This document shows positions 5,638 through 39,330 of a stretch of 64,000 nucleotides of DNA, piece by piece. A program made the position numbers and the translations under genes. The stretch spans positions 24,552,001-24,616,000 of the forward strand of contig OZ024763.1 of NCBI GenBank assembly GCA_964016885.1. The letters run 5' to 3'. Numbering within the stretch: position 1 is the first letter of the stretch; each line of letters begins with the position of its first letter. Below the pieces are notes generated by a model. That model worked only from the letters and a program-made list of their open reading frames with translations, did not search any database and was not told the DNA's origin. This DNA comes from Eledone cirrhosa. Taxonomy: Eukaryota.

Positions 5638-5822
5638 GTCATATATATATATATTTATATATATATATAATATGTTTATATATATATGTATATATATATA
5701 TACATGTTTATATATATATATATATATATAACGAAGGAAATGTGGTAAGGAACCAGGTGGACCATAACGCACCAAAGTACTCAATACTTGAGGTAGTAGA
5801 GTGGGTAATAGGAACCAGTAAG

Positions 5823-5915
5823 ACCCCGACAGCTGAGCTCAAGCCGTTTCGACGGCTAATTCTGGACTAAATGAACATTTATCCTGGTATTTAAATAGCC
5901 GATCTTCTCAAGGGT
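5823..5915 (-). ncRNA. Hammerhead ribozyme, inverted copy of 9461-9554
   Basis: Reverse complement of the same motif, with one C fewer in stem I. Confidence 0.72.
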
Positions 5916-7014
5916 AATTCCATATATGGTCAAAGTGATTGTCAAAAATCAGTAGTAATTCTGTGGTTGCAGATTAGTAGGGGAGATGGTGGCTAAACCT
6001 GCCAGTAGGAGAAAGAGGGGAGGGGGTGGAGTAGACCCAATCAAGCGTTGGTAGTGCCAGCTACAGCTGGGCATGAGGTCAAAGAAGATACAGGGGAGGG
6101 GGAGGGGGAGGAAGTCGGAACGGTAGGTAGAACAATGGGGGGTAAAAATAGGAAAGAAAAAATACTGAGAGTGAAGAAAAGCAAATAAGTGTAAAGAAAA
6201 AAATTAAATTCTACGACCTAGGTGTCAGGCTATTGTTAGGCGAGAATAAAATAAAGAAAGAAAGAAAGAAGTAAATAAATAAATAAATAAATAAATAAGG
6301 AAATAAGTAAAAGAACTAGGTGGGACGAATTAGGCAAGGACCCTTTTAAGAGGTATAAGTACGTAAATGATACGGTGACTGGTCAACAAAAGGGGCCAAA
6401 ATACTAAAGAGACTACCACGAAATAAACAATAAAGGTTTCCATCCCGGGCCAGCAACGACCCAGTGCAGCAAAGTGAACTTGTACGACATAATAATTCTG
6501 AGTCCCGGGAAAAATATATACTAATGCTAACTCTAAAAGATCTAAAACAAGCTACAAGAAAGTTCGTACGAAATAAAGGTAGAATACGGAGAAATAAGTT
6601 CAGAATCCACCCCGCCCAAAAGAAAAGCGAAGCAAGAAATACTGAAACGAAAAAATAAGGCATAAGTGCCACTAAGAAATATAGAGGGCACAGAGAATAG
6701 TGGGAGCGGTCGGAAAAAGGGGGGCAAGTATCCGGGGTCTAAGCCAACTGCTATAAAGGGCGGAGTCCGCCAAATCTATCAAAGACTAGGGGAGGGGGGA
6801 GTGGGGGTACTAAGGCTACATGGGGCCAAAGGGCATCCTCGGGTGGGCGAGAAAGACGCCGACAAAGGAGAAGAGCTGGGGTAGAAGGACAAAGGAGAGA
6901 GGGGGGAAGGAAATAAAGGATGCGATAAAAGAATACAGAGAAGATCTTACGTCTTCCTTGGCAAGCAGGGGTTACCCATTGCAAAATCGGCAACTGGGGT
7001 GTTATAGCCCTAGT

Positions 7015-8005
7015 CTACCCCCCCGGGTCATTATGGGGTTTGAGGGCGAGGTAAGTCCTACGCAATCTATGTTTACATGCAGTAACCAGTTCATCTTTCT
7101 TGTTTAGGAGTTGGTCCGTCGAAAACAGCATTTGTAAAGTTTTCCTCCGAGCATAAATTGCACGGACGGCGTCCTCCCGTGTAAGAATTGGCTCTGGACA
7201 GTAATCTCCAAGTGAGATCATAGGTAATGTTGTTGTCCTTGAGGTCCCATATGTGGCCCGAAAGTGTAGTGGCGTGACGCCGGGGCCGGGTTTCGGAAGG
7301 TATGTCTATGTTGGTATAGCCGGGTCTTGAAGTCACATGCGGTAAGTCCTATATAGGCTTTGTGGAGGTATCCGTCCTCACGTTGCACTGGTAGATCACA
7401 TTACGGTCTCTGCATCTATTGTCGAGTGGGCAAATAGATCTATCCGGGCAGTTACACTCCTGGTCGGTTCTCCACTGCTATTTAGGTTATTTTCTGCCAT
7501 CGGGGTGAGTTTTTTGTTGTTAGAGGAGACGATGTTTTGTGCGAAGTTTGGTGTAGTGCTGTAAGAGAGTTTGATGGTATTTTTGTTAATTATGTTGTGG
7601 TAGCGGTGTTGTAATGGGAAGTGTTTTTCAATGAGCCTAAAGAATAGTTTCCCGATGGGAGTAGTCACCTCTGCGTTGTGGGGAGGATTGAACCATGTTA
7701 CATTGCGTGAGCGGCGGTGTCTCCTGCTGGTTCCGCTAATGGGATCTGGACAGTAGGATATTTCCTCCCGGAAACCACTCCGCTTGAGGGCCTGGTTGTA
7801 ATAAGGCGCATGTTCATCGAATATCCGCTCATTAGCTGACAAACGGGATATGCGGAGGGAGATGTTTTTGACCAGGTTGTTTGTGATGTTCCTAGGATGG
7901 TTTGATCGGCGGTGGATGTAGTGCAGATTGTCATTAGGTTTCCTGTATGGGTAGTACAGGTCGTTTTCGAGGTCGAGGGTTACGTCCAGGAAGTTTACTC
8001 GGGTC
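7015..8005 (-). pseudogene. PLE polyprotein C-terminal half: RT palm/thumb, Cys-rich linker and GIY-YIG endonuclease (frameshifted); C-terminal EN with WFNPP motif, possibly Nematis-like
   Basis: Manual translation gives VNFLDVTLDLENDLYYPYRKPND..YIHRRSNHP, then ALKRSGF, RNVTWFNPP, then CNCPDRSICPLDNRC..VIYQC..AYIGLTACDFKTRLYQH..TTLSGHIW..CNLCSEE..LLNKKDELVTACKH. Several single-base frameshifts interrupt it. Confidence 0.9.
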
Positions 8006-8008
8006 AGG

Positions 8009-8340
8009 GACTTACCGCATGTGACTTCAAGACCCGGCTATACCAACATAGACATACCTTCCGAAACCCGGCCCGGCGTCACGCCACTACACTTTCGGGC
8101 CACATATGGGACCTCAAGGACAACAACATTACCTATGATCTCACTTGGAGATTACTGTCCAGAGCCAATTCTTACACGGGAGGACGCCGTCCGTGCAATT
8201 TATGCTCGGAGGAAACTTTACAAATGCTGTTTTCGACGGACCAACTCCTAAACAAGAAAGATGAACTGGTTACTGCATGTAAACATAGATTGCGTAGGAC
8301 TTACCTCGCCCTCAAACCCCATAATGACCCGGGGGGGTAG
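8009..8340 (+). pseudogene. Inverted duplicate of the GIY-YIG C-terminal coding region (part of the inverted pLTR)
   Basis: ORF 7912-8340 is chimeric: antisense RT sequence followed by GLTACDFKTRLYQHRHTF...LLNKKDELVTACKH. Confidence 0.85.
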
Positions 8341-9460
8341 ACTAGGGCTATAACACCCCAGTTGCCGATTTTGCAATGGGTAACCCCTGCTTGCCAAGGA
8401 AGACGTAAGATCTTCTCTGTATTCTTTTATCGCATCCTTTATTTCCTTCCCCCCTCTCTCCTTTGTCCTTCTACCCCAGCTCTTCTCCTTTGTCGGCGTC
8501 TTTTCTCGCCCACCCGAGGATGCCCTTTGGCCCCATGTAGCCTTAGTACCCCCACTCCCCCCTCCCCTAGTCTTTGATAGATTTGGCGGACTCCGCCCTT
8601 TATAGCAGTTGGCTTAGACCCCGGATACTTGCCCCCCTTTTTCCGACCGCTCCCACTATTCTCTGTGCCCTCTATATTTCTTAGTGGCACTTATGCCTTA
8701 TTTTTTCGTTTCAGTATTTCTTGCTTCGCTTTTCTTTTGGGCGGGGTGGATTCTGAACTTATTTCTCCGTATTCTACCTTTATTTCGTACGAACTTTCTT
8801 GTAGCTTGTTTTAGATCTTTTAGAGTTAGCATTAGTATATATTTTTCCCGGGACTCAGAATTATTATGTCGTACAAGTTCACTTTGCTGCACTGGGTCGT
8901 TGCTGGCCCGGGATGGAAACCTTTATTGTTTATTTCGTGGTAGTCTCTTTAGTATTTTGGCCCCTTTTGTTGACCAGTCACCGTATCATTTACGTACTTA
9001 TACCTCTTAAAAGGGTCCTTGCCTAATTCGTCCCACCTAGTTCTTTTACTTATTTCCTTATTTATTTATTTATTTATTTATTTACTTCTTTCTTTCTTTC
9101 TTTATTTTATTCTCGCCTAACAATAGCCTGACACCTAGGTCGTAGAATTTAATTTTTTTTTTTTTTTTTTTTTTTTTTTCTTTACACTTATTTGCTTTTC
9201 TTCACTCTCAGTATTTTTTCTTTCCTATTTTTACCCCCCATTGTTCTACCTACCGTTCCGACTTCCTCCCCCTCCCCCTCCCCTGTATCTTCTTTGACCT
9301 CATGCCCAGCTGTAGCTGGCACTACCAACGCTTGATTGGGTCTACTCCACCCCCTCCCCTCTTTCTCCTACTGGCAGGTTTAGCCACCATCTCCCCTACT
9401 AATCTGCAACCACAGAATTACTACTGATTTTTGACAATCACTTTGACCATATATGGAATT

Positions 9461-9554
9461 ACCCCTTGAGAAGATCGGCTATTTAAATACCAGGATAAAT
9501 GTTCATTTAGTCCAGAATTAGCCGTCGAAACGGCTTGAGCTCAGCTGTCGGGGT
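9461..9554 (+). ncRNA. Type I hammerhead ribozyme in the PLE pLTR, U3-A8 core variant
   Basis: acccc-TTGAGAA-ga(t)cggcta...tagccgtc-GAAA-cggc ttgagctca gctg-TC-ggggt. All three stems pair and the cleavage triplet is GUC. Confidence 0.75.
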
Positions 9555-9564
9555 CTTACTGGTT

Positions 9565-9655
<91 letters not shown>

Positions 9656-11404: not shown

Positions 11405-12602
<1,198 letters not shown>

Positions 12603-13918: not shown

Positions 13919-13965
13919 TATACATATATATATATATATATGTATATACATATATATATATATAT

Positions 13966-15177
13966 ATTAAGATAAGCAGAACAAGTAAAATTCAATCAAT
14001 TTTTCAAAATACATTAAAAAATATAATATAAATATTTACCTCTTCTAGTGGCCCTTACTGATCAGTTTCGCTTTGTAAAACCTCATAAATCCGATGGATT
14101 CATGATGGAAAACCAAAGCTCATCAGAGAAGCATTTTCCCATCCTAGGGCTAAACGTCCCAGGAACGACAAAATATACAACCTCCTGCCAGCTAATAAAG
14201 GTCTGAAAGGTCGTAAAAGTGACCCGTATGTAAACTGGACCGAAGTAAAAGCGGGAAAATCAAAGACTTGCTGTCTACAATTACTACTAAAGAAATAGCA
14301 GCCTAGTAAAGCAACAGATTTGTTCTCAACGGACGGAGAAAAAGGTATAAGTTAATATGTCCAGGGATACTAGGTACCCCTAGAAATACATAGGTTGTCT
14401 ATGATTCAGGGTTGTTCAATGGTGTTAATTTGATACACCAGAACTTTAATATTAAGATAAGCAGAACAAGTAAAATTCAATCAATTTTTCAAAATACATT
14501 AAAAAATATAATATAAATATTTACCTCTTCTAGTGGCCCTTACTGATCAGTTTCGCTTTGTAAAACCTCATAAATCCGATGGATTCATGATGGAAAACCA
14601 AAGCTCATCAGAGAAGCATTTTCCCATCCTAGGGCTAAACGTCCCAGGAACGACAAAATATACAACCTCCTGCCAGCTAATAAAGGTCTGAAAGGTCGTA
14701 AAAGTGACCCGTATGTAAACTGGACCGAAGTAAAAGCGGGAAAATCAAAGACTTGCTGTCTACAATTACTACTAAAGAAATAGCAGCCTAGTAAAGCAAC
14801 AGATTTGTTCTCAACGGACGGAGAAAAAGGTATAAGTTAATATGTCCAGGGATACTAGGTACCCCTAGAAATACATAGGTTGTCTATGATTCAGGGTTGT
14901 TCAATGGTGTTAATTTGATACACCAGAACTTTAATATTAAGATAAGCAGAACAAGTAAAATTCAATCAATTTTTCAAAATACATTAAAAAATATAATATA
15001 AATATTTACCTCTTCTAGTGGCCCTTACTGATCAGTTTCGCTTTGTAAAACCTCATAAATCCGATGGATTCATGATGGAAAACCAAAGCTCATCAGAGAA
15101 GCATTTTCCCATCCTAGGGCTAAACGTCCCAGGAACGACAAAATATACAACCTCCTGCCAGCTAATAAAGGTCTGAA
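13966..15177 (-). mobile_element. Tandem array of 2.5 apparently identical 485-bp units, each with an HHR (retrozyme-like or tandem pLTR)
   Basis: Units start at 13966, 14451 and 14936. No ORF of note. Flanked by (TA)n. Confidence 0.88.
14051..14132 (-). ncRNA. Type I hammerhead ribozyme (further copies at 14536-14617 and 15021-15102)
   Basis: Minus strand: gcttct-CTGATGA-gctttg...caaagc-GAAA-ctgatcag-TA-agggc. Stem III is palindromic. Confidence 0.82.
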
Positions 15178-31139: not shown

Positions 31140-31560
31140 AGGTGAGTTTTATTGTAGTACAATAAAGCAATGCAGATATCGGATAAGAAGCACTCTACAG
31201 TTTGTAGGACTGGAGTATACATAATATATAAGATCAAAAGATGGTTAAAAGAGTTCCATGTATTTTATTATGTGCATTTCAAAAACAAATATCATCATGC
31301 AATAATATTTGTGTTTTCATCAGATAAAACAGGAAGACATGATATGAAGGTTAAAAAACACTTGTGGATAGTGCAGTTTTAAATCAACATATCGATTAAA
31401 ATATCGATTTAAAACTGCACTATCCACAAGTGTTTTTTAACCTTCATATCATGTCTTCCTGTTTTATCTGATGAAAACACAAATATTATTGCATGATGAT
31501 ATTTGTTTTTGAAATGCGCATAATAAAATACATGGAACTCTTTTAACCATCTTTTGTTCT

Positions 31561-38935: not shown

Positions 38936-39144
38936 AACGACAAAAACGAACGAGGTGTGGTAAGGAACCAGATGGACCATAACGCACCAAAGTACTCAAT
39001 ACTTAGAGTAGTAGAGTGGGTAATAGGAACAATTAAGACCCCGATGGCAGAGCTCAAGCCGTTTCGACGGCAATTCTGGAGCTAATTCGGTCCAGAATTA
39101 ACCGTCGAAACGGCTTGAGCTCTGCCGTCGGGGTCTTACTTGTT

Positions 39145-39150
<6 letters not shown>
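38936..39150. mobile_element. Fold-back pLTR-end derivative of the 5731-9567 PLE family
   Basis: Tail plus the 3' half of the HHR, followed by an inverted copy ending in gttcctata(TA)n. Confidence 0.85.
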
Positions 39151-39179: not shown

Positions 39180-39330
39180 TTGATCCAGTGTATTACTGGT
39201 ACTTTATTTCATCGACCCCGCAAGGATGAAAGGCAAAGTTAAACTCGGCGGGATTTGAACTCAGACCATAAAGAGTGGTAACTCCATGCGTCAAAGCATG
39301 GCGTCCGACCCTCTACCGATACCACCAATG
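39180..39330 (-). mobile_element. tRNA-derived SINE copy
   Basis: Reverse-complement match to the SINE at 25828-26017. Confidence 0.78.

Follow-up and report, generated by a model that had tools for sequence, protein, structure and literature searches.

Penelope-like retroelements carry hammerhead ribozymes whose cutting in vivo, and its purpose, are called unclear in PMC8557442. That paper lists an octopus element in the Hydra clade, and 26 of the 26 Hydra hammerhead rows in its File S2 have a C3-G8 pair in the catalytic core. Schistosoma Penelope-like hammerheads with a U3-A8 pair are described in PMC4209133, which counts about 1,300 matches, gives low activity in vitro and proposes circles as templates; a further natural U3-A8 core is reported in PMC3088659. 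In the construct subjected to a full pairwise scan in PMC9901934 only a G-C swap rescued the 3-8 pair, so U3-A8 is not active in every context. Two internal starts of reverse transcription and protein-assisted cleavage have been shown in vitro (PMC11167929). Here we analyse a 64,000-nucleotide stretch of the Eledone cirrhosa genome (contig OZ024763.1, positions 24,552,001 to 24,616,000 of the forward strand; the window), in which a Penelope-like insertion carries a type I hammerhead with a U3-A8 core.

From the places at which genomic copies of this element end, we conclude that the U3-A8 hammerhead probably cuts a small share of the element RNA in vivo, and that the 3-8 pair would tune this cut without being required for spread. 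Cutting is likely to be slow and partial, with U-A improving on C.A but not needed. The U3-A8 core alone is ordinary and already published, in a ribozyme of known kind; given the Schistosoma matches and the other natural example, its novelty is not supported. An earlier note on this DNA had held that a U3-A8 double change can preserve activity.

The hammerhead and its predicted fold

The window-wide scan for type I hammerheads gave 15 rows, among which 9461-9554 is the only one with a non-canonical paired 3-8 state. It lies on the plus strand, sense to the open reading frame (ORF) of the element, in the 3' pseudo-long terminal repeat (pseudo-LTR), within the right arm of the insertion. Stem I pairs ACCCC (9461-9465) with GGGGT (9550-9554). 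The core strand TTGAGAA (9466-9472) reads U3 U4 G5 A6 G7 A8 A9, with U3 at 9466 and A8 at 9471, and is followed by a 54-base helix II (9473-9526) that is predicted to comprise G10.1-C11.1, one bulged U, six base pairs (CGGCUA/UAGCCG), an internal loop and a long distal hairpin. GAAA (G12 A13 A14 A15.1) occupies 9527-9530; stem III, within 9527-9549, is predicted to form five base pairs, including one G.U, around the palindrome TGAGCTCA (9536-9543); and the GTC (GUC) triplet is at 9547-9549, with the cut predicted between 9549 and 9550. Thus the description in the earlier note of a Penelope-like pseudo-LTR hammerhead with a UUGAGAA core, three stems, GUC and a palindromic loop is borne out by sequence and fold.

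The conserved hammerhead positions U4, G5, A6 and A9, G12, A13 and A14, the A15.1-U16.1 pair, the NUH triplet and G10.1-C11.1 are all present. The 3-8 pair is Watson-Crick (U3-A8) in the window copy and mismatched in C3.A8 and U3.G8 sister subfamilies. Position 7 is free to vary (G, T or A) between subfamilies, and this variation fixes the register of the core. A shifted register with N7 deleted was rejected because the variable position is 7 and published Hydra motifs have the same G10.1-C11.1 frame. With five base pairs in stem III the motif is not filed as a minimal hammerhead, in which helix III is absent or 1-2 bp long. No hammerhead family of Rfam matched 9400-9570 even at E<=10, and a CUGANGA string search of the kind used in PMC8557442 would fail, so the warning that a strict search would miss the motif was justified.

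The minimum-energy fold of the right arm contains all three stems around the core, stem I being the open one, with pair probabilities of 0.97, about 0.75 and 0.75, and the constrained active fold lies 1.3 kcal/mol above the minimum. The folding energy is not better than that of shuffled sequences (z -0.24; 72 of 200 shuffles equally good), and the case for a hammerhead therefore rests on motif and homology. A competing hairpin, AGCCGT-CGAA-ACGGCT (9520-9535), would hide GAAA; its predicted probability is 0.24 in the right arm, and it is also predicted in RNA starting at 9509. In the left arm it is favoured (0.64 against 0.35), and it is predicted to be strongest in C3 copies. A possible pairing between a stem I bulge and helix II is not kept in older subfamilies, as judged by eye.

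The left arm holds the second hammerhead copy, on the minus strand (5823-5915, U3 at 5911). As the earlier note stated, both arms share the U3-A8 core, although stem I of the left copy is one C shorter. The arms are 98% identical and are two products of one insertion, so the shared core is not independent evidence.

Insertion ends and the state of the 3-8 pair

Positions are counted here from the predicted cut site, +1 being the base directly after it. With a pattern that displays the 59 bases preceding the cut site we obtained 33,869 arms. The 5' ends of copies fall into three classes: most lie between -34 and -45, a sharply placed minority lies at +1, and the remainder are scattered upstream. 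We examined 40 loci from the first listed rows, all of them short insertions, and 53 of their 75 arms stop between -34 and -45; we use this zone and not a peak, because the end-walk overshoots to -45. Contig depth in the public run X1, which may be the sample behind the assembly, rises about twentyfold across the same zone. Copies that extend past the ORF start behave differently. Of 30 such rows, several belonging to a single array, 24 continue through the upstream hammerhead, one ends at -34 to -45 and two end at -1/-2.

A total of 528 arms start exactly at +1, defined by three mismatched bases directly before it; a hand count of the first 100 gave about 92 true ends. Controls on neighbouring bases gave 47 arms at -2 and, with the extra filter base left off, 86 at -1. 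For +2 there were 410 matches, and a hand count of 24 true ends in the first 100 puts the number at about 98. The filters pass unequal shares. Both arms end at +1, with 1-4 bases between them, in 73 and 223 matches of two patterns; removal of the microhomology class (19 of the 73; 17 of the first 100 of the 223) leaves about 54 and 185. The +2/+2 control, with 2-4 bases bounded by A or T, gave two matches at one locus, compared with like-for-like figures of 27 of 73 and 15 of the first 100 of the 223. Four rearranged copies (L275-L278), picked from among the +1 arms, join exactly at +1, L277 doing so twice. Ends at +1 are what run-off of the reverse transcriptase (RT) at the 5' end of a cut RNA would leave, and we estimate their share at 1-3% of arms. 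Ends at the predicted cut site suggest cutting, in keeping with the functional variant that the earlier note had proposed.

We counted the states of the 3-8 pair with identical exact flanks, so that the units are arms with intact flanks and not insertions. There are 3736 U3-A8, 1352 C3.A8, 34 U3.G8 and 6 C3-G8 arms, the 40 with G8 being all listed. C3.A8 is present in both arms of single insertions and was thus mobilised as such; U3.G8 forms a subfamily of its own, and the six C3-G8 copies are scattered. A C3-G8 sister subfamily was considered and rejected, because the pattern that first suggested it itself selected for C3-G8 and the flank-anchored counts and the tree show scattered single changes. 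All observed states have a pyrimidine at position 3 and a purine at position 8, and a C.A pair can mimic a U.G wobble. In the contigs of run X1, C accounts for 25% of the depth at position 3, and no variant is listed at position 8 (42 weaker rows lie outside that list). The remainder of the core is stable: in 26 sampled sister copies, selected on flanks, U4, G5, A6 and A9 are unchanged in all 26, GAAA in 24 and GUC in 25.

In a core-masked DNA tree of 59 rows, from which 71 of 140 copies were omitted as too short together with 10 more young rows, a U3-A8 clade (100/100) is nested in a C3.A8 grade and the C3-G8 copies are scattered. The U-A pair of the window thus arose from a widely spread mismatch. 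A tree of 46 rows, built from 190 upstream bases plus the motif and rooted for drawing on the most diverged group, gives a ladder of U3.G8(A7), U3-A8(A7), old C3.A8, mid C3.A8 and U3-A8(G7 or T7) with main nodes at 100; the within-subfamily divergences given with it are 0.125, 0.072, 0.036 (n=3), 0.054, 0.045-0.084 and, for the youngest family, 0.002. A protein tree with six outside relatives again places young U3-A8 inside C3.A8 (97) and groups the two oldest states (91). Judged from sequence, then, the U3-A8 pair is not strictly compensatory here. The earlier note had read it as compensatory and had named beforehand, as refuting, an independent variation of positions 3 and 8 in genomic copies; the two positions do vary separately between amplified subfamilies. 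Its observation is confirmed and its interpretation partly supported.

The footprint differs between subfamilies. In the U3-A8 tail types about 185 of 20,018 arms (0.92%) have clean double ends, against 54 of 16,759 (0.32%) in the C3.A8-rich tail type, an odds ratio of 0.35, and the -2 background is equal (23 versus 22). Tail type serves here as a proxy for the core: the C-rich type has C3.A8 in 13 of 16 sampled full copies and the others have U3-A8 in 18 of 18. At 5 of 20 fetched double-end loci of the C-rich type there is an older tail allele that was sampled only with C3.A8 cores, so that C.A masters left the footprint too. The T7 U-A subfamily, of similar age, contributes 24-26 clean matches to the first 100 rows of the 223 (no separate denominator), and in the oldest C3.A8 types 1 of 52 matches is a strict double end. 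The gap may owe something to age, to differences in the protein and to the loss of small palindromes. We dropped an early estimate, made by hand, of an equal +1 footprint in all subfamilies; it came from the first 100 rows, which are biased to young copies, and exact denominators replaced it.

Proposed routes to the observed ends

A model that links these ends begins with the element protein, which would nick its (TA)n target. Reverse transcription would then start at two internal sites, about +20 and +103 past the cut site, where the 3' ends of insertions are found, and would copy up to the end of its template. Stubs would come from RNA begun within helix II, near -41; hammerhead-cut RNA would give arms that begin at +1 with untemplated bases; and RNA with a whole hammerhead junction, either an uncut multimer or a re-joined circle, would give long and tandem copies. 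The likely transcription start, on sequence grounds, is the A at 9509 in TTAGTCC (9507-9513, plus strand), 41 bases upstream of the cut site; we take this motif to be initiator-like, and 22 of 26 sampled copies retain it. We also considered an LTR-like jump between strands, from -41 to the cut 3' end, and dropped it because full-length copies seldom end at -41 (1 of 30).

One locus fits a small circular template. L273 (G000:C2:356029500-356032600), a retrozyme-like derivative of the same family, is a tandem of seven units of 299 bp, every one containing a complete but shortened U3-A8 hammerhead that is missing distal helix II. At L274 (G000:C3:139310600-139311900) a tandem of 227-bp units spans -30 to +197 without the core strand.

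Several observations weigh against in vivo cutting tuned by the 3-8 pair. The cut site adjoins a run of four G, so that microhomology inflates the single-arm +1 counts; several counts were made by hand on the first 100 rows; and matches are arms, most loci being counted twice. The root of the ladder is uncertain, and the protein tree joins the U.G and old U-A subfamilies in one clade beside the rest. The C.A-rich tail type is impure, is older than the youngest U-A family and has a different protein, so part of the threefold gap may stem from age or protein. Single +1 ends in the oldest C.A types, about 34 true among 52 matches against 3591 intact arms, are near the average and not clearly rarer. 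No contact between loops 1 and 2 was identified in the motif. Other hammerheads with a single change at position 3 or 8 were weakly active or inactive in vitro (PMC11167929, PMC9901934), which sits badly with any cutting by C.A cores, and PMC11167929 reports that RNA reads of the Anolis element ending at the hammerhead site were not found.

The most serious alternative concerns the -34 to -45 class, which could mark a boundary of reverse transcription at a protein-bound helix II, similar to a template boundary, and not a transcription start. We regard this as a reasonable minority view. This zone, 12 bases in width, sits at the base of the distal hairpin, and full-length copies end in it in only 1 of 30 cases, unlike the prediction of a common start. 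However, a structural stop should recur at the next hammerhead, and it does so in 1 of the 28 copies that reach it; the zone also holds the initiator-like motif, with its retention in 22 of 26 sampled copies, and the D. virilis element is described as having an internal promoter with an initiator (PMC2377424).

It is unlikely, although by no means absurd, that the hammerhead is dead or irrelevant, its fold being kept as a protein-binding or promoter element and the +1 ends arising either because the RT stops at the three-way junction or through repair of breaks in the G run. Such a reading would account for the 1352 full copies reached by mismatched C3.A8 over several successive subfamilies, for the more than 95% of arms that read through the cut site and for the predicted competing hairpin, strongest in C3 copies; moreover, hammerhead mutants still inserted, and normally so, in vitro (PMC11167929). 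It sits less well with ends that fall on a single base with untemplated additions on both arms, and with a footprint rate that follows the 3-8 pair when the -2 background does not. The unchanged U4, G5, A6 and A9 of the sampled sister copies (26 of 26, with GAAA in 24 and GUC in 25) also speak against it, and the RT passes the second hammerhead that it meets in 24 of 30 copies.

A two-piece hammerhead, which is partly compatible with the explanation we favour, seems somewhat less probable again. Here the 3' half at the 5' end of an RNA started at -41 would pair with a core strand from the other end or from another transcript, or dimers would form through the palindromic loop, and the cutting core need not belong to the cut copy. 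Most templates do seem to begin at about -41, without U3-A9; the isolated stem III piece with its palindrome folds far better as a dimer (-27.7 kcal/mol, against 2 x -5.6 for the monomers); and dimer cleavage is reported for Penelope-like elements in the review PMC6765202. Nevertheless, stem III is long enough for a monomer and the rate still tracks the subfamily's own core.

Strict compensation, in which the element needs an active paired core, is very improbable. In its favour, the lineage did go back to Watson-Crick pairing, U3-A8 is the state of the youngest full copies and of the largest number of them (3736), and U-A goes with a footprint about three times as strong. The idea is nevertheless already largely refuted by the amplified mismatch subfamilies: C3.A8 (1352) and U3.G8 were propagated in the mismatched state, which both arms of single insertions carry, while C3-G8 is limited to 6 scattered copies.

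Partial cutting by the hammerhead, tuned by the 3-8 pair, remains our preferred reading. A wider and more tentative proposal is that insertion junctions are a fossil record of a retroelement ribozyme, mapping the in vivo cut to one base with a read-out for each subfamily across the series U.G, U-A, C.A, U-A; that a transcription start inside helix II splits the hammerhead between RNA ends; and that cutting and re-joining make the circles behind tandem copies. Junctions of this kind are a DNA-only read-out that can be repeated wherever a genome contains young families. A single scaffold here carries four natural 3-8 states of known order and copy number, an allelic series for how much catalysis an element needs.

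The element, its neighbours and related systems

The window insertion consists of head-to-head arms in (TA)n, both 5'-truncated and non-coding. The right arm (8008-9569, plus strand; unit positions +2012 to +20 of the next unit) holds the GIY-YIG end, the 3' untranslated region (UTR) and the hammerhead, and stops 20 bases past the cut site in (TA)n. The inverted left arm (5725-8011, minus strand; unit +1348 to +103) holds the RT C-terminus, linker and GIY-YIG in broken frames, the 3' UTR, the hammerhead and an extra tail to +103. Elsewhere in the genome the element occurs as tandem copies with a repeat unit of 3531 bp, which carries an intact 717-amino-acid RT/GIY-YIG frame that starts 190 bases downstream of the cut site, and a 1.2-kb 3' UTR. 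The element is young. Two neighbouring tandem units differ by one base, and a 127-base query was 100% identical at 40 of 40 scored places (40 scored of 413 candidates). One contig of organism B, identical over 127 bases, was too little to use.

The element has a single ORF with RT and C-terminal GIY-YIG, pseudo-LTRs from tandem copies, an inverted 5'-truncated copy and a tail, the features of EN+ Penelope-like elements. The protein has YRDD, YIGLT, DKT, a CxCx5C linker, CxxC and CxH motifs, is without GxKF/Y, and has RWR at residue 37 where the Hydra clade list has RWK, a conservative change. With the (TA)n insertion typical of that clade, the published motif list makes membership of the Hydra clade likely. 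No Pfam family matched the 717-amino-acid protein, whose top relative shows a weak GIY-YIG match; its relatives are 38-54% identical and nearly all without names.

Stubs from the same family, consisting of the 3' hammerhead half and tail only and mostly head to head in (TA)n, lie at about 29741-29934, 30081-30245, 38950-39150 and 56420-56640. Beside them, at about 30250-30440 and 39180-39300, are copies of a tRNA-like short interspersed repeat that presumably resembles an octopus short interspersed element. Head-to-head canonical hammerheads at 11759-11830 (minus) and 12210-12281 (plus), with a weak HH9 match of 34.9 bits (below the gathering score of 52), are likely to belong to another Penelope-like family. 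A retrozyme-like 485-bp tandem of 2.5 identical copies (13964-15177) has a canonical CTGATGA type I hammerhead in each copy on the minus strand (14126, 14611, 15096). Other type I motifs, with CTGATGA or CTGAAGA cores, are at 31323, 31468, 37897, 39921, 57888, 58160, 58712, 59258 and 59302; some of them form head-to-head pairs, and two are minimal. A 51-bp tandem (53037-54881; 36 copies, 96% alike) underlies a 634-codon open frame. Four other, older families (L064, L067, L072, L074) have a canonical CTGAAGA core and a long helix II that ends in a similar GAAAC context, and are possible outgroups.

We did not find the junction footprint, the variant scaffold or the amplified mismatch states in print. 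Literature searches for a genomic footprint of hammerhead cutting or Penelope junctions at the cut site, and for C3-A8 or for G8A with C3U, showed nothing relevant among the matches listed, which is no proof of absence, and earlier papers may describe mismatched 3-8 cores.

Among described systems, the closest ribozymes are the hammerheads of Penelope-like elements (Cervera and De la Pena 2014, PMC4209133), the U3-A8 variant in Cercyon of Schistosoma mansoni among them, which are likewise type I in a pseudo-LTR, with a short helix I, a U3-A8 core, a long helix II bulged near its base, G10.1-C11.1 and a palindromic loop 3. The Eledone motif differs in not being minimal, with its 5-bp stem III, 54-base helix II with a distal hairpin, and GAAA-covering hairpin, and in having amplified C3.A8 and U3.G8 sister subfamilies and genomic ends at the cut site. 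As an element it resembles the Hydra clade (Craig et al. 2021, PMC8557442) in its C-terminal GIY-YIG, DKT, CxCx5C linker, CxxC and CxH motifs, the absence of GxKF/Y, the (TA)n target, tails, and head-to-head and tandem copies, whereas RWR for RWK, the 3.5-kb unit, the 1.2-kb 3' UTR and the non-canonical core set it apart. It would share with Poseidon of Anolis (Frangieh et al. 2024, PMC11167929) two internal RT starts downstream of the hammerhead and uncut RNA as the main template. Poseidon, however, has a C3-G8 core and, as reported there, no RNA ends found at the cut site, where the Eledone arms do stop, and here the ORF begins at +190. Finally, L273 is similar to non-LTR retrozymes (bioRxiv 10.64898/2026.07.22.740005) in being a short, pseudo-LTR-derived tandem with one type I hammerhead per unit, but it is one locus only, and the main motif belongs to an autonomous element.
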